A DNA stretch of 64,000 nt from an uncultured Granulosicoccaceae bacterium (GTDB taxonomy: Bacteria > Pseudomonadota > Gammaproteobacteria > Granulosicoccales > Granulosicoccaceae). Below, one piece after another: positions 6,876 through 36,365 of the stretch. The DNA is taken from contig CALKXD010000213.1 of assembly GCA_938003855.1 (NCBI GenBank), forward strand, positions 33,722-97,721, given 5' to 3'. The position numbers were made by a program, and so were the translations under genes. Under the pieces are notes generated by a model. The model was not told where the DNA came from, made no database searches, and saw only the letters and a list, made by a program, of their open reading frames with translations. Every line of letters begins with the position of its first letter. Within the stretch, counting starts at the first letter, position 1.

Positions 6876-9815
6876 ATGAAAAAATTATCGGCCAAATTTC
6901 ATTTGGCAATGGGCCTGACTTCTATCGTGACGTCACTGTTGCTGGTCGCCACACTGCTCAATCTTATCCCGGACCGCAAACAGGCCGTTGTCGACGGGCG
7001 AGTTGCCTTATCCGAATCTATTGCCTCGAGCAGCACGTTGTTTCTGCTCAACAAAGATTATTCGAGCATCACTAAAAATCTGGAATTTTCACTGTCCCGC
7101 AATGAGGACTTGATTGCCGCATCGATACGCCGCCAGCAAGACAGCAAGCCGCTGGTTATCGGCGACGAGACCGTGATTGTCGAAAGCACCGACGGGAACT
7201 CTTCAACGGATTCGCGAGTCGTTCTGCCTATTTTGCAGGGTGATAAAACCTGGGGCGAAATTATATTGTATTTCGCCACTCCCGAAGGACTAGGCCGCAT
7301 ACAGCAATTTAAAGACTCGCGGCTGTCGCTGATAGCCTTTACCGGCAGCTTCGGCTTTCTGCTGTTTTATCTCTATCTCGGTAAAATGCTCAAAGCGCTT
7401 AACCCTTCACAAGCGGTACCTGCGCGCGTGCGGTCCGCCCTGGATACTCTCGCCGAAGCGCTGCTGGTGATTGACGCAAAGTCACATGTGGTTCTAGCCA
7501 ACAAAGCATTTCAGGAAATAACCGGCGAACAGGCCGAAGCCCTGCTGGGTCGGGAAGCCTCCACCTTTGACTGGCATATCGGCGACCAGCACCCCGATGA
7601 AGCAACGGAAGATTCCAATCTGGCATTTCCGTGGCAAAACGCCATGAAGACCGGCGAAACACTACGTAGCAACCCGCTGTGGCTGAAAAACAAAGACGAG
7701 CAGTGGCATAAATTTCTGGTTAACTGCTCACCAATCCTCAACGGCAAAACCGCCAGTGGTGTATTGATCAGCCTTGACGATGTTACCGACCTGGAAGAAA
7801 AGGAAAAAGAACTTCGATTAGCGCGTGATGCGGCGGAGTTGGCAAACAGGGCCAAGAGCGATTTTCTGTCCAACATGAGCCATGAAATCCGCACACCGAT
7901 GACAGCGATTCTAGGCTTCACCGAGGTACTGAAACGCGGCACCGGAAAGGTCGACTCCGACTGGCAAAAGCACCTTAACACTATATCCAGCAGTGGCAAG
8001 CACCTGCTGGAATTGATCAATGATGTTCTGGATCTGTCGAAAGTGGAATCGGGTGCGCTGGAGGTCGAGAGTATTGACTGTGCTCCGCACATAGTGGCGC
8101 ACGATGTTGTACAAGTGCTGCGGGTACGTGCCGAGGAAAAAGATATTGATCTCAATATCAGAGTACCGGAGGCAATGCCTGAGTTTATCCAGAGTGACCC
8201 ATCGCGCTTGCGTCAGATCATCACCAATCTGGTGGGTAATGCGATCAAGTTTACCGAAAGCGGGGGCGTTGAAATCATTTTGCGCACCGTCAACAGCGAG
8301 GGGAAGCACCAATTTGCTATTGACGTAAAAGACAGTGGCATCGGCATGAACGAAAAACAACAGGCGGCGGTGTTTAAACCGTTTGTGCAGGCCGACTCTT
8401 CCATCACCCGTCGCTTTGGCGGCACCGGACTCGGTCTGTCGATCAGTCGCAAACTGGCACGGGCACTCGGTGGGGATATCACCCTGAGCAGTGAAGCCGG
8501 TGTTGGTACCACGTTCACAGCACTGATCGACACCGGTCCTCTCGATCCCAGCACCTTCCTCAGCCCGGAGCGTATCCTGGAGACACTGGTTGTCACTGAG
8601 GAAGATAATCAAACCGAGTGGGTATTCCCACCATCGAAACTGCTGGTGATTGACGATGCCGCCGAGAACCGCGAATTACTGTCACTGGTTCTGACAGACC
8701 TCGGTCTGGAGGTTGATCTGGCCGAAAACGGCGCTATCGGGGTGGACATGGTTGCCGCAAACCACTACGACCTGATTCTGTCCGACATTCAAATGCCGGT
8801 GATGGATGGCTACGAAGCGGCCCGTGCCATGCGTGACAGCGGTGTAGAGCAGCCGATCATTGCACTGACCGCGAATGCCATGAAAGGCTACGAGGAAGTG
8901 ATCCTGCAAGCGGGATTCTCTCACTACATGACCAAACCTATCGATATCGACGCACTGACCAGGTTACTGGCTAAGCTGCTGAACGGTAAACCCGGTGCTG
9001 TGAAACCGGACTCTGCTGCCTCTGAGCAGCCGTCAGTTGCCCTTACAGACAAAGTCGATACCGACGCAATAACAACGGAGGCGTCTGACACTTCCCTGCC
9101 ACTGATTTACAGTAAGCTCGGTGACTCATTGACGCTCGGGCCGGTGGTGGAAAAATTCATCGTCAAGCTGCACGAGCAACTCCCGTTAATGGAAGCGGCC
9201 CGTCAGCGGCAGGATTTCAAAGAATTGGCAGCCAGCGCCCACTGGCTGAAAGGCTCGGGCGGCACGGTAGGCTTTACCGAGTTGTCGGTTCCGGCAAAAT
9301 TACTGGAAGACAACGCGAAGGCATCCAATGAAGCAAGTTTGGAACACGACCTGCAAACTATCAGGGAAATTGCCTCACGCCTGCGCGGTGGTGTGCCGTC
9401 TGCGACAGAACTGGAAGAAAAACCGTCGCCAGGTATCAATTCCGCCACTACCGGGTCGACAGCAAGTGAGATAGAAGTCGTAGAGAGCAGTCTACTGCTG
9501 CGGGATTCTTCATTCCGGCCCATCGTCGTGAAATTTCTGCCACGTCTAAAAGAAAAACTGGACGCGATGGACGTGGCGTTAAGAGACATGGACTATGAAG
9601 AACTGGCTCAACTGGCACATTGGCTTAAAGGTTCCGGAGGTACCGTCGGTTTTGACATCTTTACTGAACCTTCAGCTGAAATGGAGACCAGCGCACACAA
9701 CAAAGATGAAGGAAATATCATTAGGCTGTTAAACGAAATCAAAGACTACGCAGAGAAGATTGTGATTCCCGGCAATGACAACGAAGGTCCATCGACCTTG
9801 AAAAATTCTGCTTAG
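6876..9815 (+). CDS. hybrid sensor histidine kinase (TM - PAS - HisKA - HATPase_c - REC - Hpt - Hpt)
   Basis: Two N-terminal hydrophobic helices are present. The H-box is SHEIRTPMTAILGF, the N box is NLVGNAIKFT and the G boxes are DSGIGM and GGTGLGLSIS. The receiver has DLILSDIQMPVMDG...ALTANA. Two Hpt-type motifs are present: SAHWLKGSGGTVGF and LAHWLKGSGGTVGF. Confidence 0.92.
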   Translation: MKKLSAKFHLAMGLTSIVTSLLLVATLLNLIPDRKQAVVDGRVALSESIASSSTLFLLNKDYSSITKNLEFSLSRNEDLIAASIRRQQDSKPLVIGDETVIVESTDGNSSTDSRVVLPILQGDKTWGEIILYFATPEGLGRIQQFKDSRLSLIAFTGSFGFLLFYLYLGKMLKALNPSQAVPARVRSALDTLAEALLVIDAKSHVVLANKAFQEITGEQAEALLGREASTFDWHIGDQHPDEATEDSNLAFPWQNAMKTGETLRSNPLWLKNKDEQWHKFLVNCSPILNGKTASGVLISLDDVTDLEEKEKELRLARDAAELANRAKSDFLSNMSHEIRTPMTAILGFTEVLKRGTGKVDSDWQKHLNTISSSGKHLLELINDVLDLSKVESGALEVESIDCAPHIVAHDVVQVLRVRAEEKDIDLNIRVPEAMPEFIQSDPSRLRQIITNLVGNAIKFTESGGVEIILRTVNSEGKHQFAIDVKDSGIGMNEKQQAAVFKPFVQADSSITRRFGGTGLGLSISRKLARALGGDITLSSEAGVGTTFTALIDTGPLDPSTFLSPERILETLVVTEEDNQTEWVFPPSKLLVIDDAAENRELLSLVLTDLGLEVDLAENGAIGVDMVAANHYDLILSDIQMPVMDGYEAARAMRDSGVEQPIIALTANAMKGYEEVILQAGFSHYMTKPIDIDALTRLLAKLLNGKPGAVKPDSAASEQPSVALTDKVDTDAITTEASDTSLPLIYSKLGDSLTLGPVVEKFIVKLHEQLPLMEAARQRQDFKELAASAHWLKGSGGTVGFTELSVPAKLLEDNAKASNEASLEHDLQTIREIASRLRGGVPSATELEEKPSPGINSATTGSTASEIEVVESSLLLRDSSFRPIVVKFLPRLKEKLDAMDVALRDMDYEELAQLAHWLKGSGGTVGFDIFTEPSAEMETSAHNKDEGNIIRLLNEIKDYAEKIVIPGNDNEGPSTLKNSA

Positions 9816-19318: not shown

Positions 19319-19374
19319 TCGCACCTGCATGGGGCAACCCGGCTTCCACTCATACGTTTCTCGGTTTGCCCGAA

Positions 19375-21207
19375 ATGACACAAGTACATGCAACTGTGCA
19401 AGCAGTTACCGAAAGGATCCGGTCTCGCAGCGATAAACTGCGGTCTGCATACCTCGAACAGACAAGTAGTACCAAACAGAATCAGCCGCGCCGCAACCGG
19501 CTCTCCTGCACGAATTTTGCCCATGCGGTCGCGGCTGCTTCTTCTAACGACAAGCTCACACTCCATCAGGAGCGTGCACCCAATCTGGGTATTGTTTCTG
19601 CCTACAATGAAATGCTCTCGGCACACCAGCCCTTCGAGCGCTTTCCGGACATTATAAAGTCGGCCGCCCGCGAGGTTGGTGCCACTGCTTTGTACGCAGG
19701 TGGTGTGCCAGCGATGTGCGATGGTGTGACACAAGGCCGTCCCGGCATGGAGCTGTCATTATTCAGCCGCGATGTGATCGCCCAGTCCACGGCTGTCGCT
19801 CTGTCTCACGATGTCTTTGATTCAGTTATTTATCTGGGCACCTGCGATAAAATAGTACCGGGCCTGCTAATGGGGGCGCTGGGTTACGGCCATCTTCCAG
19901 CCATATTCGCACCCGCCGGACCGATGACATCAGGGCTGCCCAATTCAGACAAAGCCATTGCCCGCCAAAAGTTCGCTGAAGGCAAAATCAGCCGCGAAGA
20001 ATTACTTAAATCCGAGTGCGCCTCTTATCACGGCCCCGGCACCTGCACCTTTTACGGCACCGCCAACAGCAACCAGATGCTGATGGAAGTGCTTGGCCTG
20101 CACCTGCCGGGCAGTGCTTTCATTAATCCAGGCAATGAGTTGCGCGATACACTGACGCATGCTGCCGCAGTTCGCGCACTGGAAATAAGCGCCACCGGCC
20201 CCGACTACACACCGGTTGCTGAACTGGTCAGTGAGAAATCCATTTGCAACGCCATTGTCGGCTTGCTGGCAACAGGCGGGTCGACCAATCACACCATGCA
20301 CATCATTGCCATCGCGCGCTGTGCCGGGCTGCTGGTTAACTGGACAGACTTCAACGATTTGTCGGCGGTGGTTCCGAGCCTGACAAGCATCTACCCGAAT
20401 GGCCAGGCCGATGTTAACCAGTTTCACGCCGCCGGCGGCATGGCAGTGGTCATCAGTCAGCTGCTCAGAGGGGGTCTGCTGCACAACGATGTAAAAACCG
20501 TTATCGGCGAAGGGCTCGAGCGCTACTGCAGCGACCCGCAAATGAACGAAAACACGCTCACCTGGAAACCCAGCAACGGTGAGTCCTCTGACACCTCGAT
20601 AATCGCAAACCTCAGCAAACCATTCAGCGCTAGTGGCGGTATTGCCCTGCTGGAAGGTAATCTGGGACGCGCAGTGATAAAAACCTCAGCGGTCAAGACA
20701 GAGCATCTTCGGGTTTCAGCACCAGCCCGCGTATTCACCAGCCAGGCGGAATTTCTGGATGCGTTCGATGCAGACGAGCTCAACGGCGATCTGGTCGCTG
20801 TAGTAGTCAATCAGGGTCCTCGCGCCAACGGTATGCCTGAGCTACACAAACTGACACCGGCACTGGGTATATTGCAAGACAAGGGATTCAAGGTGGCATT
20901 GGTAACTGACGGGCGCATGTCTGGTGCTTCGGGCAAGGTTCCCGCAGCAATCCACGTATCACCGGAGTGCAGCAACAATGGCCCTCTGGCGCTGGTCAGA
21001 ACCGGCGACATCATCGAGCTCGACGCTGAATCCGGTACTTTAAATGCACAGGTTGACCCCGAGGACTGGCGCAACCGTGACCCGAGCAGCAATCCCGCCA
21101 GCGACACCAACGATGGCCGCCTGCTATTTGCCAGCATGCGCAACTGCGTCAGTACCGCTGAAACCGGTGCGCTCACGCTATTCAACCCGGAACTAAACAC
21201 CCTGTGA
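19375..21207 (+). CDS. edd: phosphogluconate dehydratase
   Basis: IlvD/Edd family blocks are present: [25 protein letters not shown] and [21 protein letters not shown]. It lies in the Entner-Doudoroff cluster. The start is ATG 19375 (the track uses TTG 19366). Confidence 0.95.
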
Positions 21208-21818
21208 CTATACGCACTATCATGCAGGCATCGCCTGTTATCCCTGTGCTGGTTCTGGAAGAACCGGACACAGCCGCCGCACTGGCCCAGGCGCTGGTCA
21301 GCGGTGGTCTGCGTACACTAGAAATTACCCTGCGCACGGCAGCTGCATTTGATGCTATCGCCGCTATCAAAGAGGCCGTGCCAGATGCCTATGTCGGGGC
21401 TGGAACTGTCAACACTTTCCAGCAGCTGGAAAAATGTCAGGCACTGAATGTCGACTTCATGGTCAGCCCGGGGTTGCATACACCGCTGGCCACTGCCGCA
21501 CTGGAGACCGGCATCCCGTATTTACCGGGTATTGCAACTGCCAGTGAAGCGCTAACCGCCGTTAACCTGGGAATTGAGTCACTGAAGTTTTTTCCAGCCG
21601 TGCCGGCCGGTGGTGTCAATTTGCTTAAAGCCTTGAGCGGCCCCTACCAGCAGCTGCAGTTTTGCCCGACAGGAGGCATAAACGCCGACAACTACCAGCA
21701 ATTTCTGGCACTTGATAATGTACTGTGTGTGGGCGGATCGTGGGTGGCCCCGGCGTCATTGATCAAACAGGCAGCGTGGGACGACATTACGGCATTGGCC
21801 GCCGCCGCGGCTGCCTGA
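21204..21818 (+). CDS. eda: 2-dehydro-3-deoxy-phosphogluconate (KDPG) aldolase
   Basis: The blocks [30 protein letters not shown] (Schiff-base Lys) and CPTGGI are present. The GTG at 21204 overlaps the edd stop (GTGA); the ATG at 21222 is an alternative start. Confidence 0.93.
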
Positions 21819-22728: not shown

Positions 22729-23598
22729 TTACTCCAGCCATTCGGAAAATCCCTCCGGCAGTGCGATCAATGCTCCGTCACTGCTCCAGCCACTGGCAGC
22801 GGCCAGCTCTGCTATCGCCGAAATACGCTCCTCGTCGAGTGGATGCGTGCTAAAAAAGCGCTCCCAGCGCCGGCTGTTTTCAGCATCCTTCTGTGCTGCG
22901 AATAAAACAAACAAATCCGCCGCACCACGAACATGACCATACAGAGCGTGGATCGCCTGCAATGCTGATCGGTCTGCCTGAGATTCCATGGATCGTGAAA
23001 AACTCATCTGCGTAATACTGCCACCCAACTCATACAGCCGCCCTTGCAGACTGGTACCTGCCGGCAACACAGCTGTACCGATTGCCACCGCCAGCCCGCT
23101 GCCTAAGCCACGCGCGGGGTGCCGCAGGCTCACATGTGAAACCTCGTGGGCGATTAACATGGCCAGTGCATTTTCATGCGGCAACAACCTCAACAAACCC
23201 CGGTGCAGATACACATGACCGCCCACCGTCGCAAAGGCGTTGATGAGATCATCCTCGATGTAATGCAGGGTAATGGGAATGTCGGCGTCGAGCTCGAGCG
23301 CATCAGTCACCCGGCGACTCAGTCTTTTCAAATACTGACGCATCGGGGTGTTAGCAGTACTTTCGGCAAAGGGGGATGATTGGCCTGTGGAGACCATAAG
23401 ATGATCGACCTTTTCCGCCACCCACAGCTCAACAGTAAAAGGCATGAGCCCGCCGAGCCTGCCGCCGCTCACGTTCAACACCATCACCAGCACAGCAACC
23501 GCCGTAATCGCAAGCAGCAGCAACCGTAGAAATTCACGCAGCGGATGGCGTTTCGGGGTGTTCAGCCCCTCCGTGGGTTGACGGTTTTCGTATCGCAT
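22729..23598 (-). CDS. M48 family metallopeptidase (membrane-anchored)
   Basis: It has an N-terminal TM helix (LLLLAITAVAVLVMVL), the zinc motif HEVSHVSLRH (HExxH) and the downstream SRSMESQADRSAL block typical of M48. Confidence 0.85.
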   Translation of the reverse strand: MRYENRQPTEGLNTPKRHPLREFLRLLLLAITAVAVLVMVLNVSGGRLGGLMPFTVELWVAEKVDHLMVSTGQSSPFAESTANTPMRQYLKRLSRRVTDALELDADIPITLHYIEDDLINAFATVGGHVYLHRGLLRLLPHENALAMLIAHEVSHVSLRHPARGLGSGLAVAIGTAVLPAGTSLQGRLYELGGSITQMSFSRSMESQADRSALQAIHALYGHVRGAADLFVLFAAQKDAENSRRWERFFSTHPLDEERISAIAELAAASGWSSDGALIALPEGFSEWLE

Positions 23599-23637
23599 AG
23601 CTATTGGACCCGGTTCACCCGGCCATCGATCATGACA

Positions 23638-24111
23638 TCAGTCCGGCAACACTTGCTGCACAGTGGAATCCCCCAGCGGTGTAAGCGCGGTACCATAGGC
23701 CAGCACCTCTATAGTGGTGACTCCTGCGGCGATTGAAGATGTCTCGTATTTGACGTTAATTACCATTGATGCCCCGACTGTACCGGCCTGCTCTTTCAGA
23801 CGCAGCAGGGACTCACGGCGACCACGGTCAAGCAGTGACTCAAACGCCCGGACCCTACCGCCAAAGAGATTGACCAGGCCCGCCATAAAGGATTTGAAGT
23901 AGTCACTACCGATAACCACACTGCCACAAACCAGCTGTTGCTGATACAGACCTGCCCGGGGTGGAAATTTAGTGGCAATGGCGGGTAGATCTGCCAGCTC
24001 ACTTTCACGTTTTCTGATGGATTGGTAGTGCCGCCGTTCGGCGATGCGACCACAGCTATACCCAAGCACCAGCAATGCGGCGAACAAACCAAAATCAAAC
24101 ACCGTCTGCAC
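23638..24111 (-). CDS. YbjQ (UPF0145) domain protein with N-terminal TM anchor
   Basis: An N-terminal hydrophobic helix (FGLFAALLVLGYSCG) is followed by YbjQ-like blocks (FMAGLVNLFGGRV, ESLLDRGRRESLLRLKEQA, GASMVINVKYETS). It overlaps the upstream ybjQ-like gene by 17 nt. Confidence 0.75.
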   Translation of the reverse strand: MQTVFDFGLFAALLVLGYSCGRIAERRHYQSIRKRESELADLPAIATKFPPRAGLYQQQLVCGSVVIGSDYFKSFMAGLVNLFGGRVRAFESLLDRGRRESLLRLKEQAGTVGASMVINVKYETSSIAAGVTTIEVLAYGTALTPLGDSTVQQVLPD

Positions 24112-24424
24112 TCACGCTGACGGCAGAACCATAGACAAATATTTCAGCCGCCCCGGCGGCAATGCCGGACGTTGAGAAACGCACATTCAATACGGCATCC
24201 GCGCCGATACTCTGTGCCTGTAGAGTCAAACGTTCGACGGCCTCTTCGCGCGACTCATGCAGCAACTCGGTATAACCCAGCAACTCACCACCGAAGATGC
24301 TCTTGATTCCCGCCATGAAATCCCGTCCCGCATGCTTGGACCGTACCGAACTCCCCTGCACTAACCCAAGGTGCGCTGTGATCGTCATGCCGGGTAAATA
24401 TTCGAGGTTGGTAATTATCATCAC
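24095..24424 (-). CDS. YbjQ family protein (UPF0145, annotated heavy-metal-binding)
   Basis: The 109-aa product has the canonical layout: MIITNLEYLPG..., GLVQGSSVRSKH, FMAGIKSIFGGEL and GADAVLNVRFSTS. Confidence 0.85.
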   Translation of the reverse strand: MMIITNLEYLPGMTITAHLGLVQGSSVRSKHAGRDFMAGIKSIFGGELLGYTELLHESREEAVERLTLQAQSIGADAVLNVRFSTSGIAAGAAEIFVYGSAVSVSADGV

Positions 24425-27245: not shown

Positions 27246-28352
27246 TTGGCCAACTATTTGCCAAACCAGGTTATCAGTGTCAAAACAGCAGACGGTAGAA
27301 AGATGCGATTAATACCAGCAGTAATCCTCAGTGCGCTACTCGCGGTAGTGTACTGGATTGGTGCCACGGTCTTCACAGACCGGATCGAACGGGATATCAC
27401 CGAGCGATCTCATGCGGCCGTCGCCATGTTACCAGAGGTCGACGTCAACGTTGACGGACGCGATGTTACGTTAACCGGCAATGTAAATACAGCAAGTGAA
27501 CGCAATGAGGCAGAGCACCGGGTTGACTCGGTCTGGGGCGTGCGTGCATCACAAAACGAACTGAATGTCTTCAAACCCTACAATTTCAACGCAAGTAACA
27601 ACGCAAACGACGGACTGAAGATCGTCGGGACCATCGATAATGAGAACTCAATGGCAGAGTTGCGCACGTCACTTGCACCACTATCGCCGACTATTGATGT
27701 TGACTATGGTGCACGGCCGATGGTCAAAAGCGCCGAGAAATTGAAAATCGGAACCGGCAGCCTGCTACTGCTAAATCACGGCGATCTAAAAATTGATGAC
27801 AAAGAGTTTGTTCTCAATGGCCTCGCTGCCGATGAAGAGGTGCGTTCGACCATTGTCAACAGCCTGATTGACAAGCACGCGTCACTGGCCCCTCTCGATG
27901 TTGTTGCGAACATTGACGTGGCCAGTACATTGACGCAGGCCTGCCGCAACCAGCTTGACTCAGTACTGGACAATAACACCGTCCTCTTCGACGTAGCCCG
28001 CTATGATATTCCTGAATCGCAAAACGCTATTATTGCCGAATTCGCAACCCTGATGCAGCACTGTCCCGGATCAGTACTTATAGAAGCTCATGCAGACCAT
28101 GACGGGAGCGAGACGTACAACCTGGATCTGAGCCAGAGACGTGCGATGGCAGTCGCAGCTCAACTGATCCGAAACGGCGTTGCAACAACACGGATAGAAT
28201 CATTCGGGTATGGCGAAACACGCCCTGTCGCATCAAATGAATCAACGAACGACAAGACATACAACCGACGGGTTGAAATGCAGTACGTTCATGATAATCC
28301 AGTTCCTAATCAACACCAAGAAGCCATAATAAGCTCACAGAGCGCGGAGTAG
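27246..28352 (+). CDS. membrane-anchored BON domain / OmpA-C (MotB-like) peptidoglycan-binding protein
   Basis: The TM helix is IPAVILSALLAVVYWIGATVF. A BON-like segment follows: VDVNVDGRDVTLTGNVNTASERNEAEHRVDSVWGVRASQNELNV. The C-terminal OmpA-like domain reads VLFDVARYDI...IEAHADHDGSETYNLDLSQRRAMAVAAQLIRNGV...GYGETRPVASN...NRRVEMQY. The start is TTG 27246 or ATG 27303. Confidence 0.85.
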   Translation: MANYLPNQVISVKTADGRKMRLIPAVILSALLAVVYWIGATVFTDRIERDITERSHAAVAMLPEVDVNVDGRDVTLTGNVNTASERNEAEHRVDSVWGVRASQNELNVFKPYNFNASNNANDGLKIVGTIDNENSMAELRTSLAPLSPTIDVDYGARPMVKSAEKLKIGTGSLLLLNHGDLKIDDKEFVLNGLAADEEVRSTIVNSLIDKHASLAPLDVVANIDVASTLTQACRNQLDSVLDNNTVLFDVARYDIPESQNAIIAEFATLMQHCPGSVLIEAHADHDGSETYNLDLSQRRAMAVAAQLIRNGVATTRIESFGYGETRPVASNESTNDKTYNRRVEMQYVHDNPVPNQHQEAIISSQSAE

Positions 28353-28354
28353 AC

Positions 28355-31300
28355 ATGCTTTATTTAATCACTCAGATATTGCTAATATTATTTATAGCAA
28401 CCGTCCTCGGCGTGTTGTTGGGTTGGGTCTTACGTAAGATTAAGGCCTCTCAAGTCGAAGAAAAACTTAAACAGCGCCTGCATGAGTCTGAGCAAACGAT
28501 CAAGCCGATCAAACAGGCTTTATCAGAAGCGCAGGGCGATGTTGCCGGACGCGATGCAAGCATCGCAGGCCTTCAGGCTAAGTTGAAAGATTTCGACTCC
28601 CAGGCCCCGGGCATCAAGGCAGAGATCGACAAGTTGTCCAGCAAGCTCGGTGCAAGTAATGCGTCGGCCGAGGCTTTAAAGCAGGCACTTAGCGACAAGG
28701 ACAATCAGTTGCTACGATTAAGCAATGACTTGTTGCAGGAAAAAGCAGCTGTCCGACAGGTGGATCAATCACTGGCTGATGCACAGGGTAAACGTGCCGA
28801 GCTGGAACAACGATTGGCAGAAATGCGGGTTCGTCTGGACAACAACGATGCTGCAACACAAAGAGCCAAAGCAGACTCAAACGCACTGCAGCGTGAAATC
28901 AACGCACTTCAAATCAAGCTCAATGACTCAGAGCACAAACGCGATGCTTCCGTCGCCGATCTAAAACGCACGCTGGAACTGGAGTCGAAGGAACACGCCA
29001 AAGCGACTGCCGCACTGGCTGCTGTGGAAAGTGAACGCGCTCTGGCTAATGAAAAAATCGATGCGCTGACAAAGGATTTGCAGGACAAAATCACTGACCA
29101 TAAGCTGGCTATTACCGAGCGTGAGGCGCTGCAGCGCGAAGTCGCCTCACTGCAAGCTCAACTTGACCGATTGCAAAAGTCTCATGACGCCAAAGTCGCC
29201 GAACTTCAGCAACTACTGGCCGCCCGCCAGCAAGTCAATGATGATGCCAACAAAAAGCTTGCTGAAAACGCCGGTGCGATTGCCCGACTGGAAGGCGAGA
29301 TTGACCGTGCCCGTGACAAACTCGCTACCGCGCAGCAAGCCGGCGCAAGCGCTGCTGCAGAACGTGATTCACTGAACAAGCAACTCAGCGACCTTGGTCA
29401 GGCCAAGGCCACACTGGAAACAGACGCCGCCGACAAAGCCCGACAACTCGAGCAGAAAAAACAGGCGCAGCAAGACAAGATTGATCGACTGGAAAAAGCA
29501 CTCGCCGACACCGAATCACAAAAACTAGGATTCGCCAGTAACCTCGATGGCGTCAGAGCACAACTGCAAGCAACTAAAACGACCGAAGATCGAGCTGCAA
29601 AAGACAAAGATCGTCTCGAGCACAAGATTGGTTTGCTGGAAGCCAAGATCAAAGCGCAGACCAAAGAAGCGGAATCACGCATTGCCGATCTGGAGAAGCA
29701 ACTCACTGAAAGCAAGCTGGCTCGGCAATCTGCCAGTGACCAGCAACGTGATCTGGAGCAACGCATTCAGACACTGAAAGATGATCTGAACGAAAGGATC
29801 ACCGATCTAAAACTTGCCTCTACGCTGCGACAGAATCTGGAAAAGGATGTATCCGGACTGGAGGACGAAGTGAAAGGCCTGAACGATCAAGTCAAATCAC
29901 TGCAGCAGGCCCTGGATAAGTCAAAGGCTGATCACAACAGCAAGATCGCAGCACTGAAAGCATCACTGGCTGATAAAGAGGCACGCCTGGCCGACGGCGG
30001 TCTCGCGATACAGCAGTTGGCTGATCTGAAAAAAGCGCAACAAGAAGCAGACAAACAGCACTTGGCAGCACTGAAAGGTGCCGAAGGGAAAATCGCTGAG
30101 CTCGACCGACAACTGGCTAAGCAAGGCAGCGAACTAACCAGTACAAATGCTGAAGCAAAGCGCCTGAAGGAAGAGTTCGACAGAGCGTCCAGCCAGAATC
30201 AGCTTCTGCAGGACAAGCTGAACACCAACCAGGGTCAACTGCAATCAGCAGAGACTGCACTTAAGCTTGCCGAGAGCGATGGCGCGAAAGCACTGCAGGC
30301 CGCAGCGCTGGCCGCTGACAACGCGAACAATGCCTTGTCTTCAGCCACCGGAAAAGTTGCCGAGCTGAAAAATAAAAATGGCGTACTCGAAACTGAAATA
30401 GCAAAGCTCAAGCAGGACTACGCTGACGCTAAAATGGCGGCAACAGCAAATGCTGCAGAAGTGACTTCACTGAAAGACGATAGCAATAAACAACAGCTGG
30501 CACAGGAAAAAAATAACGCCGCACTCGAGCAAAAACTGGACAAACTAAACAAAGATCTGTCAGACGCTATCGCAACCGCCCAGGCAAATGCTGCCGAAGC
30601 CGCTGCCCTCAAGAGCGACAACAAAAAGCTGCAGAGAGATCTTGATTCAGCCCTGCTCGCTGCCAGAACCGATGTGTCAAGACTGCAAGGCGAAAACGAT
30701 AAGGTCACCGACCAGGTGAATGACTTGCTGCAAAAGCTCGATACAGCCAGGCAACAACTGCAGACTCAGGACAAGGCGGCAAGCACCAAAATAAGCGATA
30801 CAGCAAAGGCTCTGAGTGAGGCCACCAACGAAAATCGCCAGAACAGCGATGCTCGTGCAAAGGCAGAGCGGCGTGCCGCTGAGCTCGAACAGAAAGTAGC
30901 GGGTCTGACAGACCAACTGCAGGATTTAAAAGAAACAGCAGCCGACCTGAAAACCAACGCTAAAGTCAGCGTTGCAGAAAATGCCGCCTTACAACGTGAG
31001 CTGCAGGCAGTAAAAGACGCCGCACAAGCCGCTGATCAGCAGCATGCAAAAACCCTGGATACCCTGCAAAGCGATCTGGCAGCAACACAGGCATCTGCCG
31101 CAAAGGCCGAAAAAGACGCTGCTAGTTTCCGCGATACTGCCGCTGAACTCAAGCGCGCCAAAGAGTCGGATGCCAGCTCAGACCGCCAGGCACTTGCAGA
31201 CCTAAACAAGCAGCTGACGGCTACCGGCAATGAGAAAAAGCAACTTGCTAATTCCCTGGCAAAGGCACAGAAAGATCTGGCTGATGCCACAGCCGAGCTA

Positions 31301-31978
31301 AAAGATGTCAAAACAGACGGCAAACTGGCATCCGCAGAATCCAGGAAGCTGGAAAAGGAAGCCGTTCGCCTCGATCAGGCTTACGCGGCACTGAAAAAAG
31401 AGCTCGAGAACACCGCCAACGCCAAACAGCAATTCCGCGATGACGCAAACAACGCCAACAAGGAAAATGCTGACCTGAAGCGTCGGCTTGAAACCAAAGA
31501 AAAAGAACTCAGTGACTTGACAGGTAAGCTGCCGACTCTGCAATCAGAGCTCCGTCAGAAAGAGAAAAGCGAAGCACGGCTGGAAACTGAAATCGCTCAA
31601 TTGAAAGCTCAGTTGAACTCGGTGAATGACAAAATCGGTACCCTGACCAGTGATCTGGGTAAGCGCGATACCGACAACGCCAACTTGCGCAACGAGACGC
31701 AGGCAATGCAATCGCAACTGTCAGAGTATCAATCACTGGAGGTAGAACTGCTCGATCGCATCAAGGCACTCGAGACTGAGCTCACCAGTGCACGCAAAGA
31801 TGCCAGTAAGAATCTGCTGTCACGGATACTCGAACTGGAAGCGATGCTGCAGGCAGAACGCAACAAGGCCGAAGAGTTTCGCACCATGACAGGCTTGGGT
31901 GATGTATCCGTCTCACAGTCTACCATTCGCAAAGTTGCGGCAAACTCCGAAAGCCATAAAAAGAAAAGAAACGGATAA
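28355..31978 (+). CDS. 1207-aa single-pass membrane protein consisting almost entirely of coiled coil (no family recognised)
   Basis: The ATG lies 2 nt after the upstream TAG, with GGAG 5 nt upstream. One N-terminal TM helix (LITQILLILFIATVLGVLLGWVL) is followed by RKIK. About 1150 residues of A/L/Q/K/E/D-rich heptad-like sequence follow, with no Cys, no further Trp and only three Pro. The gene ends before a strong terminator. Confidence 0.85.
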   Translation: MLYLITQILLILFIATVLGVLLGWVLRKIKASQVEEKLKQRLHESEQTIKPIKQALSEAQGDVAGRDASIAGLQAKLKDFDSQAPGIKAEIDKLSSKLGASNASAEALKQALSDKDNQLLRLSNDLLQEKAAVRQVDQSLADAQGKRAELEQRLAEMRVRLDNNDAATQRAKADSNALQREINALQIKLNDSEHKRDASVADLKRTLELESKEHAKATAALAAVESERALANEKIDALTKDLQDKITDHKLAITEREALQREVASLQAQLDRLQKSHDAKVAELQQLLAARQQVNDDANKKLAENAGAIARLEGEIDRARDKLATAQQAGASAAAERDSLNKQLSDLGQAKATLETDAADKARQLEQKKQAQQDKIDRLEKALADTESQKLGFASNLDGVRAQLQATKTTEDRAAKDKDRLEHKIGLLEAKIKAQTKEAESRIADLEKQLTESKLARQSASDQQRDLEQRIQTLKDDLNERITDLKLASTLRQNLEKDVSGLEDEVKGLNDQVKSLQQALDKSKADHNSKIAALKASLADKEARLADGGLAIQQLADLKKAQQEADKQHLAALKGAEGKIAELDRQLAKQGSELTSTNAEAKRLKEEFDRASSQNQLLQDKLNTNQGQLQSAETALKLAESDGAKALQAAALAADNANNALSSATGKVAELKNKNGVLETEIAKLKQDYADAKMAATANAAEVTSLKDDSNKQQLAQEKNNAALEQKLDKLNKDLSDAIATAQANAAEAAALKSDNKKLQRDLDSALLAARTDVSRLQGENDKVTDQVNDLLQKLDTARQQLQTQDKAASTKISDTAKALSEATNENRQNSDARAKAERRAAELEQKVAGLTDQLQDLKETAADLKTNAKVSVAENAALQRELQAVKDAAQAADQQHAKTLDTLQSDLAATQASAAKAEKDAASFRDTAAELKRAKESDASSDRQALADLNKQLTATGNEKKQLANSLAKAQKDLADATAELKDVKTDGKLASAESRKLEKEAVRLDQAYAALKKELENTANAKQQFRDDANNANKENADLKRRLETKEKELSDLTGKLPTLQSELRQKEKSEARLETEIAQLKAQLNSVNDKIGTLTSDLGKRDTDNANLRNETQAMQSQLSEYQSLEVELLDRIKALETELTSARKDASKNLLSRILELEAMLQAERNKAEEFRTMTGLGDVSVSQSTIRKVAANSESHKKKRNG

Positions 31979-32024: not shown

Positions 32025-32054
32025 AAAAGCCGCTTTTTAAAGCGGCTTTTTTTT
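32025..32054 (+). terminator. rho-independent terminator
   Basis: A 10-bp stem (aaaagccgct / agcggctttt) with loop ttttaa continues into a run of 8 T. It starts 47 nt downstream of the coiled-coil gene stop. Confidence 0.85.
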
Positions 32055-32171: not shown

Positions 32172-33947
32172 CTAGCCGCGACTACTGCGCAACACAGCGG
32201 CAACATTCTCTGCAGCTTCATACACCAGCGCAGCGTCTTCACCGGTATTCAACTCAGCGGCATTGGCTTCGTCGGTATCAATATGCATTTCAAGTTTATA
32301 TTTCTCGCTGACGCGTACCAACACATCGCCAAACGCTAGATCACGGGGTCCGCCGGTGATCGCAACTTCGACGATGTCTTTATCTGATACACCAAACACT
32401 TCAGCGTCCTGCGGATGCATGTGAATGTGCCGCCGAGCGCAAATCAATCCTTCAGTGAGATGTACCGAACCCTGCGGACCTTCCAGTATGATTGGCGCTG
32501 AGCCCGCCACCTGCCCTGAGTCCCGGATTGGAGCATCAATACCCAGCCTGAATTCATCCGTGCGGGAGATCTCGATCTGATCAACAGAGCGTAACGGGCC
32601 GAGTACGCGCACACCGTCAATGCGGTTACGTGGGCCAATCAGATTGACCTTCTCCACACAGGCATACTGACCGGGCTGCGAAATATCACGATACTTTGTC
32701 GGCTTGGCCTGCGCTCCGAACAACGCCGCAAATGTTTCTTTGGTTAAATGCATGTGCCTGGCGCTTACGGCCACCGGAATAGTCTTTGGGCTATGCAGTA
32801 GATTTTGTTGCTCGACGATACGCTGCGTTTGCCTGGCGATCATCAGCTCTTCATCGGTTTTGACAACCATCACGCGGACACGGGAGTTTGCCTCACTGAT
32901 CGTGGCGACATTGGCCGCAGCCAAGACATCCGCATCGGTGTTGCGGTCTTCATCCAGCCGTATCCCTAAAAACTCCAGCCGCTGCAGTATACGCCGGCGC
33001 ATCGTTGCGCTGTTTTCGCCAATGCCACCGGTAAACACCACGCCATCAATACCACCCATAACGGCGGCGTAGGCCCCCACATATTTGCGAACGCGATGGG
33101 CAAAAACATTGATTGCCAGCCGCGCCCTGTCGTCACCCTGCTCGGCCAGATCTTCCAGCTTACGCAGATCGTTGCTGCTACCGGACAGCCCTTTCAGACC
33201 GCTTTGACGATTGAGCAGAGCGTCGAGTTGCGACACGCTGAACTCACCGCTGCGCAGCAGTGCCATCAGTGCTCCGGCATCGATGTCACCCGAACGAGTC
33301 CCCATCACCAGACCTTCCAGCGGCGTCATGCCCATACTGGTATCTGTTGAGTGCCCGAATTCAACGGCGCAGGCGCTGGCTCCATTACCCAGATGCAGCG
33401 TCACCAGACGCAACTCATTCAATGGAGCTGCCAGCGCGTCAGCAGCGACACCGGCGACGTACTGGTGAGATGTGCCGTGAAAGCCGAAACGACGAATGCG
33501 ATGTTTATTGGCAATGTCGCCGTCTATTGCATAACACCGTGCGCGACGCGGCATTCGCACATGAAAGGCGGTGTCGAATACGGCGACGTGCGGCACGTCA
33601 GGCCAGCGTTGTCGGGCAATGTGGATGCCCTCTAGATTAAACGGGTTGTGCAGCGGCGCATCAACTGATCGCGCATCAATCTCGGCAATGACTTCTGCAT
33701 CGATAGCCACCGCGTCGAAGTAGCGCTCGCCTCCGTGCACAACGCGATGACCCACTGCATCAACGCGGTGGGCAGAACACTGCGAAACCAGATGCTCCAG
33801 CGCTTGCTGATGAGTACGCCAGACGGAATCAGCCTCGGCGATGTGCTCGATTTTTCCGCTCAGCAAACGACTGCCACTGGCAACGTCAATTAACTGATAC
33901 TTGACGCTCGAAGAACCACTATTGACGACCAGTACATTCACGGGCAA
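32172..33947 (-). CDS. ackA: acetate/propionate kinase fused to a PduL-type phosphate acyltransferase
   Basis: The N-terminal ~390 aa carry acetate-kinase blocks: LVVNSGSSSVKYQL, HRVVHGG, PLHNP, AVFDTAFH, RRFGFHGTSH, HLGNGASA, GTRSGDID and FTGGIGEN. The C-terminal ~195 aa (nt 32172-32765) are PduL/PTAC-like, with the duplicated motifs VSARHMHLT and CARRHIHMH plus LEMHIDTDEANAA. The start is TTG 33947 or GTG 33941. Confidence 0.88.
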   Translation of the reverse strand: MPVNVLVVNSGSSSVKYQLIDVASGSRLLSGKIEHIAEADSVWRTHQQALEHLVSQCSAHRVDAVGHRVVHGGERYFDAVAIDAEVIAEIDARSVDAPLHNPFNLEGIHIARQRWPDVPHVAVFDTAFHVRMPRRARCYAIDGDIANKHRIRRFGFHGTSHQYVAGVAADALAAPLNELRLVTLHLGNGASACAVEFGHSTDTSMGMTPLEGLVMGTRSGDIDAGALMALLRSGEFSVSQLDALLNRQSGLKGLSGSSNDLRKLEDLAEQGDDRARLAINVFAHRVRKYVGAYAAVMGGIDGVVFTGGIGENSATMRRRILQRLEFLGIRLDEDRNTDADVLAAANVATISEANSRVRVMVVKTDEELMIARQTQRIVEQQNLLHSPKTIPVAVSARHMHLTKETFAALFGAQAKPTKYRDISQPGQYACVEKVNLIGPRNRIDGVRVLGPLRSVDQIEISRTDEFRLGIDAPIRDSGQVAGSAPIILEGPQGSVHLTEGLICARRHIHMHPQDAEVFGVSDKDIVEVAITGGPRDLAFGDVLVRVSEKYKLEMHIDTDEANAAELNTGEDAALVYEAAENVAAVLRSSRG

Positions 33948-34053: not shown

Positions 34054-36270
34054 TTACTCGTTGATGGAGACGGGTGAATCGACTCCCCACTCACCGTATT
34101 GCAGAGAACCATTGTGGATGGCGTACAGACCGCCATCCGAGGCAATAACAGCGCGGTCATTTTCAAGACTTACCGGGGAATAATTATGCCCGGCATCGCG
34201 GCTTTCATAGGTCCAGTTCGGACTGGCTACAAAGGCCGAAGCGCCTGCATCAACTTCCATGGTCAGCAACATGTTCGAGGTCCAGTCAGACCACGCCGAC
34301 GGACTCGACGATTCAACAGGCTCGTCGTGCAGCTGAAGCGGTATGGCAAAACGTCCGTTGCTGGAACCCGAGCCAGGTAACCAGGCAAATGCATGGTGGT
34401 TGGTCAACGCCGGTGTTTGCGTGCCGCGCTTTCCAATAACCACACTGTCTGCAACAAACGGGTTGGAGGCGTCAGACACATCAAACAGTGCCAGCTTGAC
34501 GCCCTGATACCAGGCACCTCGACCATCGCCCCAGCCACCATTGCCGGCAATAGCATCTTTACCCAGTCCAATCAGCAGCGAGTCGTTAACAGGGTGCAGA
34601 TAATCCGAGTATCCGGGTAACTCAAGCTCACCGGCAATAGACGGATCATAGGGATTGGATACATCGAGAACATACAATGGATCTGTGATGCGGAACGTCA
34701 CCAGATAGGCGCGATCACCAATAAACCGACTGGCGTACAGACTTTCACCCTCTTTACCAATGGGAGCAGGTCGGTCACTATTGGGCAGTGTGGACAGGGT
34801 ATTCAGGCGAGATGTACTGCTTTCACCCAATATATTTAGAGTCACTGGAGAGCCAGACCGGCTTTCATCAAAAGACACTATACGCAGATTGCCATCTTTC
34901 TCACTCATGCGGAAAGGCTTTCGCTTTATATTCCAGCCCAGGTGACCACTGACGGACCCGGTTCCCTTAAATGCAGGTGCACCGTTGCTGTTGAGGCTGA
35001 ATTTATGCACTTCCGTGGTAATTTCCGGCCGTGAATAGCTTAGAACCGTGTCACCACGCTCATCGGTGGAAAACGAATAGTCATACTCGGTAGTGGCCAG
35101 ATAAAGCGCATTCTGAGAAACGTAGATGGTTTCGGTGTCGCCGACAAAGCAGGTGTTATTAACCTGTACATTTCGAGTGTCCAGATCAATGGTCACAATA
35201 GAAATTACACTGGGATCCCGATGATACGGGATAGCATCACCGGTCGCAGTATCAGAGTTTTCAGCCACTGGCGGATCACTTTTATAACAGCGGTTATCTC
35301 TGATTAGCGCGGTGTTGCCGCCGTCATCGACGCGGTAGCTTGGTAGAAAATCCGCGACATCGGCATTTTCGATAGCAGTGCGGTTGCGTTGAAAGTCGGC
35401 GTCACTCGACGGGTAGAGAATGATATCCTGGATTTGCGGATGGTAGCGCGTCACGACGATAAGTCGATTATCTATTTTACGACTGGAAATCAACTGACCA
35501 TCGATATCCACCGTTCGTGTCACCGACATATTGCCGCTATCTGCCGCGTCAATCCATGACACACGAGTTTCCCGGCCAGCCCACAGCGACGATGTATGCC
35601 AGTAGGCCCAGTTATCAAAAGACTGTCGTGACAGCATGACCAGATCCCGGGCAGAACCGTTTTTATGCAGATACATACCCTCGGGGGAATGATTACCCAG
35701 CGGTAGCTTCAGGCGAGACAGCACTGCCGAATTGTTTTTATCCATGCGATACGCACTGAGCGTATTTTCCGATGTAGTGGGCGCAATCGTCAGCCCCTGA
35801 TCCGCCAGCAGTACAGGAAAGATGCCGTAGTACTGCGAATTAGGCGTCTCGAGCGCAAACAAGGTGTTACCGTCAATTTTTATCCGATCAGACTCATCGA
35901 CTCCGACTTCCTGAACATTGGTATCACTGAAACGGGTTTCAGCCGGTACGCTGGTACCACCGGTATCGGCCGATGATTGCTCTGCTACCGCATCGACAAG
36001 CAGGCCACCGGCCTGTCCGATTGCACTGGTGGTGTAATAGTTAATCAGAGACTCACGGATAATCGTGTCCGCTTGATCCGCTGCCAGAACGGGCACCACC
36101 GGAGTCTCGGTGCCATTGTTGTTGTCGCCGTTGTTTGTGCCATCGCCGGTACCAACACTCGAACTGTCACAGGCAGCCAATGCGAAAACAACAGCGAGTG
36201 TCACAAGGCCACGACCGGCTATTCTGTGTGTTAGCGCGGCTTGGCTGCTTGTTCGTGCTTGAACAGTCAT
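34054..36270 (-). CDS. secreted beta-propeller domain-containing lipoprotein (COG4880/PF09826-like)
   Basis: The ATG at 36270 gives a signal peptide with lipobox (VVFALAAC) and then an N/G/T-rich linker. The family-typical C-terminal block is RFIGDRAYLVTFRITDPLYVLDVSNPYDPSIAGELELPGYSDYLHPV. The track ORF extends 23 codons further upstream. Confidence 0.8.
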   Translation of the reverse strand: MTVQARTSSQAALTHRIAGRGLVTLAVVFALAACDSSSVGTGDGTNNGDNNNGTETPVVPVLAADQADTIIRESLINYYTTSAIGQAGGLLVDAVAEQSSADTGGTSVPAETRFSDTNVQEVGVDESDRIKIDGNTLFALETPNSQYYGIFPVLLADQGLTIAPTTSENTLSAYRMDKNNSAVLSRLKLPLGNHSPEGMYLHKNGSARDLVMLSRQSFDNWAYWHTSSLWAGRETRVSWIDAADSGNMSVTRTVDIDGQLISSRKIDNRLIVVTRYHPQIQDIILYPSSDADFQRNRTAIENADVADFLPSYRVDDGGNTALIRDNRCYKSDPPVAENSDTATGDAIPYHRDPSVISIVTIDLDTRNVQVNNTCFVGDTETIYVSQNALYLATTEYDYSFSTDERGDTVLSYSRPEITTEVHKFSLNSNGAPAFKGTGSVSGHLGWNIKRKPFRMSEKDGNLRIVSFDESRSGSPVTLNILGESSTSRLNTLSTLPNSDRPAPIGKEGESLYASRFIGDRAYLVTFRITDPLYVLDVSNPYDPSIAGELELPGYSDYLHPVNDSLLIGLGKDAIAGNGGWGDGRGAWYQGVKLALFDVSDASNPFVADSVVIGKRGTQTPALTNHHAFAWLPGSGSSNGRFAIPLQLHDEPVESSSPSAWSDWTSNMLLTMEVDAGASAFVASPNWTYESRDAGHNYSPVSLENDRAVIASDGGLYAIHNGSLQYGEWGVDSPVSINE

Positions 36271-36365
36271 TATCAATCCTCTAGTTACTTGAAGTTCCAA
36301 TCGGTCTGTGGAGTTCCCTGCCAGTTGCCGGGATTCCAATAATTATAGTCCAATTTCATATATAC

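Follow-up and report, generated by a model that had tools for sequence, protein, structure and literature searches.

The window analysed here is a stretch of 64,000 nucleotides (nt) of contig CALKXD010000213.1 from an uncultured Granulosicoccaceae bacterium (Gammaproteobacteria; assembly GCA_938003855.1), and our subject is a pair of adjacent open reading frames (ORFs) on its plus strand. ORF1 (27303..28352, +) encodes a protein of 349 amino acids (aa) in which a transmembrane (TM) helix is followed by three BON-like repeats and an OmpA-C domain, an architecture like that of Rv0899/ArfA. ORF2 (28355..31978, +) encodes 1207 aa that begin with a TM anchor, continue as a coiled-coil rod of about 1150 residues and end in a tail that is basic and disordered. 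The features described below lie on the plus strand unless a minus sign is given, and all evidence on the module is computational. The pair represents a two-gene module that is conserved but has so far gone undescribed, and whose role is probably to tie the cell wall to something within the cell. On sequence grounds, the pair is not an orphan but a lineage-specific version of a widespread anchor–rod–adaptor module.

An earlier note on this DNA had ORF1 begin at 27246, where a TTG would give a protein of 368 aa. About 100 full-length homologues of ORF1 were found, nearly all of 349–351 aa and starting MRL..., and since they begin at the position of the ATG at 27303 (349 aa, MRLIP...), we take that ATG to be most likely the start. 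The tight coupling of the two genes proposed in the note is borne out by the junction, which reads ...GCG GAG TAG AC ATG: the stop codon of ORF1 (TAG, 28350-28352) is separated by a gap of 2 nt from the ATG of ORF2 (28355), and the GGAG that forms its ribosome-binding site (28346-28349) lies inside the last codons of ORF1, 5 nt ahead of that ATG. The same 2-nt gap is shared by all orthologues of this pair, which we call pair A.

Among proteins of the Rv0899/ArfA architecture, ORF1 is a new member. The domains that had been read from its sequence, a TM helix, BON and OmpA-C, were all recovered, with a Pfam BON match of 32.3 bits (cut-off 27) at residues 50–107 of the 368-aa form and a Pfam OmpA match of 70.7 bits (cut-off 27.2); NCBIfam matches are all restricted to the OmpA-like region and all lie under the family cut-offs. 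An AlphaFold2 (AF2) model built from 33 homologues has a mean pLDDT (per-residue model confidence) of 86 and opens with one long helix (residues 3–39, 27309..27419), the TM segment at about residues 3–24 running into a juxtamembrane periplasmic helix with a conserved I-E-x-D-I-x-x-R motif in which I28, D31, I32 and R35 are invariant. Where a single BON-like segment had been described, BON is indeed present, but the model has three BON-like alpha/beta repeats (residues 46–89, 94–135 and 143–206; 27438..27920), the first of which is the Pfam match. They are followed by an OmpA-C-like peptidoglycan-binding domain (residues 212–329, 27936..28289), supported by Pfam and Foldseek, and by a disordered C-terminal tail (residues 332–349, 28296..28349; pLDDT <50) that ends in a conserved I-I-S-S-Q-S-A-E. 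The top Foldseek hit of the model in the PDB is Mycobacterium tuberculosis Rv0899/ArfA (2l26, E 7e-13); further matches are Pal, OmpA-C and YfiB domains, with target-normalised TM-scores up to 0.88 for Pal/OmpA-C, and the dual-BON protein DolP (6xmv). Within the OmpA-C domain, the invariant D265 and R280 are separated by 15 residues, which we take to be the spacing of the HTD...RA pair that binds diaminopimelate (DAP) in OmpA-like domains (residue roles, PDB 3TD5).

Charge counts over the 33 homologues give about 0.9 lysine or arginine (K/R) before the ORF1 TM segment and a net acidic sequence after it, which argues for an N-in/C-out orientation. The TM segment is also the best-conserved region of the protein (0.70 versus 0.55 overall), as expected of a helix that is retained and functional; ORF1 thus fits a retained N-in/C-out anchor whose BON/OmpA part would be periplasmic. 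The disordered tail may itself be a periplasmic peptide motif. In paralogues it reads [IL]-S-[ST]-x-S-x-[ED] and is kept even where a spacer of 24–28 nt separates the two genes, so its conservation is not merely that of the ribosome-binding site that overlaps it in the window. A stator subunit of the MotB/ExbD/TolR kind was considered for ORF1 and rejected: its TM segment lacks Asp, its partner has a single TM helix, and MotB/MotS models score 39–56 bits against cut-offs of 250–300.

ORF2 has the features listed in the earlier note: 1207 aa, no Cys, a single Trp (W24), Pro only at positions 51, 85 and 1060, RKIK after the helix, and the end SHKKKRNG. Ala makes up 17% of its residues, Leu 13.6%, Lys 10.8% and Gln 8.8%, with Asp and Glu at about 8% each. 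The first 30 residues (28355..28444, MLYLITQILLILFIATVLGVLLGWVLRKIK) form an anchor that is conserved across an alignment of 22 diverse partners, where Y3, L4, G23 and W24 are invariant and Q7, L12 and R27 nearly so; ORF2 carries Y3, L4, Q7, L12, G19, G23, W24 and R27 of this family, including a G19-x-x-x-G23 (GxxxG) motif within the TM helix. Among 68 partners, none has K/R in its first three residues, and the 12 residues round the helix end, counted from G-W, hold a mean of 3.2 and a minimum of 2. Because positive charge is absent ahead of the helix and present behind it in all 68, ORF2 is predicted to be N-out/C-in, with a cytoplasmic rod. The three-TM partners in Bosea and the cytoplasmic location of the Urf1/protein-O domain are consistent with this placement. 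The charge counts on the two sides of the pair thus agree with the topology first suggested, in which the coil is cytoplasmic and the BON/OmpA part periplasmic.

The rod spans residues ~30–1179 (28442..31891), as delimited by heptad analysis and by an AF2 helix that runs to about residue 1179. Its description as heptad-like was well founded: the heptad score is 0.456, against 0.234 ± 0.014 in shuffled sequences, a difference of about 16 standard deviations. There are 13 real register shifts, and since every one of them is a stutter (−3/+4), the rod appears continuous and not segmented. Position a is occupied by L/I/A/V/N and position d by L/A, a pattern classical for parallel dimers, and we infer that ORF2 forms one. 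If continuous, 1150 residues at ~0.15 nm each would extend for about 170 nm, in keeping with an initial estimate of more than 100 nm. Conservation within the orthologue group of ORF2 is concentrated at residues 1–320 and 1121–1200, and the region 600–1100 is rich in indels. The degenerate internal repeats that had been noticed hold up in part: ALQRE occurs at residues 177, 258 and 878, where a composition estimate gives an expectation of ~0.01, but a composition-corrected self-BLAST of ORF2 found no significant long repeat. Tandem arrays are limited to three short ones of about two copies each.

The C-terminal module of ORF2 (31718..31975), which we call type iii, consists of the rod end (E-L-L-x-R-I-x-x-L-E...L-L-S-R-I-L-E-L-E-A-M-L-x-A-E-R-x-K-A) and a tail that carries an A-A-N-S motif and terminates in the basic HKKKRNG. 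Besides the alignment, AF2 of the last 120 residues supports this division, with a single helix to ~1179 and then a low-pLDDT tail of about 28 residues. The module is lineage-restricted and rare, with 35 matches across 1.84 billion representative proteins, C-terminal except for about four weak or fragmentary ones. A homology search with full-length ORF2 gave three relatives only, coiled-coil words having saturated the candidate list, and a PDB sequence search returned no match.

The conservation of the pairing in relatives had been set beforehand as a test, and the pairing withstood it strongly in both directions. A survey with the ORF1 profile, using one genome per species, yielded 79 loci. 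With three metagenomic loci and the window this comes to 83 sources, and in 78 of them the TM–BON–OmpA gene is directly followed, on its own strand, by a gene that bears the anchor (M-x-Y-L-x-x-Q...G-x-x-x-G-W-x-x-R). Two of the remaining five have an anchor-like ORF, and three are partial, OmpA-only matches. Intergenic gaps, where measured directly, range from −4 to +33 nt. The reverse look-up is equally consistent, with an OmpA-domain gene directly upstream in 6/6 proteins found through ORF2 or the anchor alone. Three of these are ORF2 homologues of 716–1162 aa, each preceded at a gap of 2 nt by a BON–OmpA gene of 351 aa. The other three are short proteins, each likewise with an OmpA-domain gene directly upstream; they belong to the 10 short fragments that a 46-aa anchor profile retrieved from a set of 5.8 billion proteins.

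Pairs occur in Granulosicoccaceae, Leucothrix (Thiotrichales), a Methylothermaceae metagenome-assembled genome (MAG) and other gammaproteobacterial MAGs and, beyond Gammaproteobacteria, in Bosea and other Hyphomicrobiales, an Inquilinaceae MAG and a Gemmatimonadota MAG. Across these pair-bearing groups, conservation does not extend to a third gene. Most sampled Granulosicoccaceae genomes (L004-L047, L059) carry two pairs (16 genomes), and the family has at least four pair types with differing rod lengths; the genome of the window probably has a second pair elsewhere. Pair A has the 2-nt gap and rods of 633–1277 aa. The second pair of the 16 two-pair genomes is usually pair B, with gaps of 23–28 nt and rods of 413–639 aa, and is a Pro-rich long-rod type in three. 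Other Granulosicoccaceae genomes have a type ending in a helix-hairpin-helix (HhH) domain (892–1357 aa) or a variant of type iii (1082–1415 aa). Most pair B loci (L016-L032; e.g., L017:7153-7743) have the gene of a MarR-type winged-helix regulator of ~192 aa (Pfam MarR_2, E 5e-11) immediately upstream, on the strand of the pair. At L034:8001-9187, a frameshift, pseudogenisation or an assembly error has left the ORF1 orthologue as two ORFs of ~200 aa each; its 1146-aa partner is intact.

The partners form a modular family. Their lengths range from 43 to 1695 aa and their rods from ~0 to ~1600 residues, with the ends conserved. Apart from type iii, two end modules were recognised. Type i is DUF4332, of the helix-hairpin-helix clan (E 1e-23 to 1e-25). 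Type ii is an HhH domain with the motif D-D-L-K-x-I-x-G-I-G-P...R-D-x-W-V-x-Q-A that matches the C-terminal compact domain of Urf1/protein-O (9wqv_a, 8yy9_O) at E ~1e-15; hhalign relates types i and ii to each other with a probability of 78%. One partner, P0003 (L001:10001-12151), carries a near-perfect tandem duplication of ~70 residues within its rod (ADKEARAADGGLA...DKSLAAAIA, twice), which shows how rod length changes. In Bosea and other Hyphomicrobiales (L050-L078; e.g., L053:4859-9536), the OmpA protein is ~800 aa long with many BON-like repeats, the partner is ~250 aa long with three TM helices and a Urf1-C-like domain, and in most loci a 1439-aa ORF and a porin-like gene precede the pair on its strand. 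At the other extreme, anchor-only mini-ORFs of 43–57 aa lie directly after OmpA-domain genes (L071:~8537-8668, L165:4001-4159, L166:4001-4141, L167:580-753). Some of them may be split genes; at L165, a 422-aa ORF lies 100 nt past the mini-ORF.

The account that we lean towards, with a confidence just above the even mark, is that ORF1 and ORF2 form a two-protein complex spanning the inner membrane and acting as a wall-anchored cytoplasmic tether or scaffold, a function that is itself speculative. ORF1 would be inserted N-in/C-out, with its three BON-like repeats at the periplasmic face of the membrane and its OmpA-C domain bound to peptidoglycan through D265/R280, and such binding would fix the complex laterally to the wall. 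ORF2, synthesised in step with ORF1 by translational coupling, would be inserted N-out/C-in, its GxxxG helix pairing with itself and with the TM/juxtamembrane helix of ORF1. A stoichiometric membrane complex is suggested by the strict two-way adjacency and translational coupling of the genes, by the conservation of both the ORF1 TM segment and the partner anchor, and by the need for Rv0900 in OmpATb (Rv0899) expression. From the membrane, ORF2 would project its two-stranded parallel coil into the cytoplasm or lay it along the inner membrane face. The combination of conserved ends and a variable middle suggests a spacer or scaffold; the rod would be its evolvable part, and specificity would reside in the conserved membrane-proximal third and in the distal end module with its basic tail. 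This distal end may bind a cytoplasmic target, through the HhH domain in sister families and through the helical end and short basic disordered tail in ORF2. DNA binding by the end module is suggested only by analogy with HhH domains and by the short basic tail.

We are more inclined to doubt than to assert a broader version of this account, in which the pairs belong to a phylum-spanning class of trans-envelope tethers that keep a target in the cytoplasm at a given distance from a fixed point of the sacculus, with rv0899–rv0900 as the minimal, rod-less form. The target might be the nucleoid, to which the HhH adaptors would point, or else large complexes associated with the membrane.

Several observations count against the tether or scaffold. 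The hydrophobic segment of ORF1 ends in I-G-A/T, a possible signal-peptidase site, and an ORF1 cleaved there would be soluble, which would make contact with ORF2 hard to explain; that physical contact is, moreover, something that we infer. The TM sequence of ORF1 is unconserved in distant taxa, whereas the partner anchor is conserved, and the conservation of the anchor may have another cause, e.g., self-association or insertion. The roughly two-fold variation in length within the orthologue group of ORF2 argues against a precise ruler role. As to the distal end, the function of the HhH modules is itself obscure in the sister families (PMC12079452, PMC13066640), and the end of ORF2 is not of this kind: hhalign gives module iii a probability of 1.3% against type ii and 0.1% against DUF4332. 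A degenerate HhH domain at the C-terminus of ORF2 was discarded on these values and on the AF2 model of a single helix with a disordered tail. A basic patch of 4–5 residues is weak evidence for any particular target of the window's end module, and the flanking genes give no functional hint.

Four rival explanations were weighed. ORF2 could be an intermediate-filament-like protein that polymerises under the inner membrane as a skeleton, riveted to the wall by ORF1, and that stiffens the envelope or osmoprotects with no specific distal cargo. The rod is long and Pro-free, its stutters are regularly spaced, and faint Rod_CreS matches occur in homologues; Pfam Filament also matches ORF2 at 40.2 bits against a cut-off of 40, but this composition-driven match at the exact threshold is such as any long coiled coil gives. 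The two pairs of most sampled Granulosicoccaceae genomes, the variety of at least four pair types and rod lengths, and the MarR-type regulator gene ahead of one paralogous pair would suit such a skeleton, as would the link of BON domains to osmotic and envelope stress and the phospholipid binding of DolP (PMC7806268). What makes a skeleton rather unlikely to us is that the conserved, interchangeable C-terminal modules, including HhH, point to a specific distal interaction, and that many relatives with rods of 0–300 residues, too short for a skeleton, are still paired. It is also conceivable that the periplasmic TM–BON–OmpA protein does the work, in wall–membrane integrity or in pH/ammonia adaptation, that the anchor protein mainly stabilises or regulates it in the membrane, as Rv0900 does, and that the rod is a lineage-specific accessory. 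Rv0899 is the best structural match of ORF1, the anchor is the sole universally conserved segment of the partners, and anchor-only partners stand beside OmpA genes. In M. tuberculosis, Rv0900, a 50-aa membrane protein encoded directly downstream of rv0899, is required for OmpATb expression and controls its levels post-transcriptionally (PMC3618439), and the ompATb operon promotes ammonia secretion at low pH (PMC12183614). We consider this improbable. The likeness of Rv0900 to the anchor, by size and position, may be no more than architectural; the function of ArfA is itself unsettled; and 3.6 kb of strongly heptad-constrained sequence with conserved segments, kept in many genomes, argues for selection on the rod and against its being decoration.

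Two further identities fare worse. TolA has an N-terminal TM helix and a helical domain rich in Ala, Lys, Glu and Asp and works with an OmpA-like protein, so that the helix of ORF2 could be a signal anchor and its coil, which lacks Cys, could meet ORF1 in the periplasm as TolA meets Pal. Such a rod is highly improbable given the charge distribution around the helix in 68/68 partners, the domains at the ends of sister proteins, which are cytoplasmic in solved complexes, and a length of 170 nm, many times the width of the periplasm. TolA further requires a periplasmic domain II, a globular domain III and tolQR; the charges of ORF2 predict a cytoplasmic rod, tolQR is not nearby, and Pfam and NCBIfam gave no TolA family match. 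Kinship with SMC, Rad50 or MukB, or with a component of Zorya-, Lamassu- or Wadjet-type defence, was raised by sub-threshold matches of ORF2 to SMC, Rad50, JetC and LmuB and of ORF1 to ZorB, but it is effectively refuted. The matches of ORF2 all fall in coil segments, far under their cut-offs (SMC_prok_B, 104.7 bits versus 567), and ORF2 has no Walker A motif, where SMC, Rad50 and MukB require two ATPase head halves and a hinge. The PADLOC matches to ZorB cover the OmpA-like domain of ORF1 only, and neither a ZorA/MotA-like gene nor other defence genes were found nearby. FimV and tape-measure families in Pfam and NCBIfam were likewise unmatched by ORF2, which agrees with the original reading of the long ORF as belonging to no curated family.

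The system nearest to the proposed tether is the ompATb operon of M. tuberculosis (rv0899/arfA, rv0900/arfB, rv0901/arfC). Its first protein has the same architecture as ORF1 (TM, BON, OmpA-C), the next gene starts with a single TM helix there as here, and the anchor-only partners match Rv0900 in size. The operon differs in that Rv0900 has no rod, whereas ORF2 has its long coil and a conserved end module, and in that no Rv0901-like third gene is conserved in the pairs. Beyond ORF1, the relationship between the operon and our pairs may be one of analogy. A 2011 paper by Marassi may already have pointed out that Rv0899-like and Rv0900-like genes occur together. The claim that no two-gene system of this kind had been described needs qualifying. 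Literature searches on DUF4332, Granulosicoccus coiled-coil and BON–OmpA gave no account of the partner family or of the pairing, but the ompATb operon does have a small membrane-protein gene downstream of rv0899.

A polar landmark of the FimV/HubP kind shares with the pair the logic by which a domain that binds peptidoglycan in the periplasm is joined, across a membrane span, to a large client-recruiting scaffold in the cytoplasm, and the analogy is a guess. FimV and HubP are single polypeptides with LysM, acidic repeats and a conserved FimV C-terminal motif; Pfam and NCBIfam found none of their domains in the pair, where anchor and scaffold lie on separate polypeptides. Crescentin, FilP, Scy, other coiled-coil-rich proteins (CCRPs) and TipN, the last TM-anchored with a large cytoplasmic coiled coil, have in common with ORF2 a long stuttered heptad rod and membrane-associated scaffolding. 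They differ in lacking a dedicated peptidoglycan-binding partner gene, the Y-L-x-x-Q...G-W anchor and interchangeable C-terminal modules, and their sequence kinship with ORF2 is limited to coiled-coil composition. Zorya likewise combines a peptidoglycan-binding protein of OmpA/MotB type with a membrane protein whose cytoplasmic coiled-coil tail is very long. The stator subunit ZorA is MotA-like and multi-TM, and ZorB has a stator plug and a TM Asp, whereas both proteins here are single-TM, the ORF1 helix lacks Asp, and neither ZorC/D genes nor a defence island are present; in PADLOC, ZorA was unmatched by ORF2. The compact domain of Urf1/protein-O/NuoE and DUF4332 are cytoplasmic domains that a flexible or extended linker connects to a membrane anchor (PMC12079452), as in the partners here, but the end module of ORF2 itself is unrelated to them. 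The Urf1/protein-O domain occurs in RC-LH1 photosynthetic structures, and its authors call its function obscure (PMC12079452, PMC13066640).

Known links from the static wall to the organisation of the cytoplasm are few, FimV/HubP and the Zorya tail being examples. The pair would add a two-gene logic in which a wall anchor is combined with a conserved membrane helix, a spacer whose length can be tuned and an end domain that can be swapped. Its natural variants, from anchor-only peptides to rods of 1700 residues, form a comparative series for the effects of length and end domain. The module offers a possible explanation of why M. tuberculosis OmpATb needs Rv0900, and it gives a first genomic context to two orphan domains, DUF4332 and the C-terminal domain of Urf1/protein-O from photosynthetic complexes. 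It is clean, conserved and experimentally tractable; in cultured Granulosicoccus strains, genetics and cryo-electron tomography should be feasible.

The strong terminator that had been noted after ORF2 is an intrinsic hairpin (32025..32054, +) between the convergent ORF2 and ackA-PTAC genes, whose 11-bp stem (32025-32050) closes a loop of 4 nt and is followed by a U-run (centroid −15 kcal/mol, z = −3.5); a simple consensus scan for terminators did not list it. The neighbours, a zinc alcohol dehydrogenase (ADH), an ackA-PTAC fusion and a beta-propeller protein, are as uninformative as first judged. The fusion is a single 591-aa ORF (32172-33947, −) with Pfam Acetate_kinase (428 bits) and PTAC (PduL-type phosphotransacylase, 245 bits) matches, and acetate kinase–PTAC fusions of 587–601 aa occupy the same place on related contigs. 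The beta-propeller protein (Beta_propel, PF09826, 326 bits; 761 aa, 34054-36339, −) has a hydrophobic segment at its N-terminus and a linker rich in Gly, Asn and Thr, and its gene adjoins ackA-PTAC in relatives too. At 22729-24424 (−), the window holds a 289-aa ORF and, next to it, a tandem of two YbjQ-family genes (109 and 157 aa); their counterparts at the syntenic locus L001 are annotated YbjQ_1 (twice) and Peptidase_M48. Most pair A loci keep this trio in synteny, with edd-eda (19366-21818) upstream of it.

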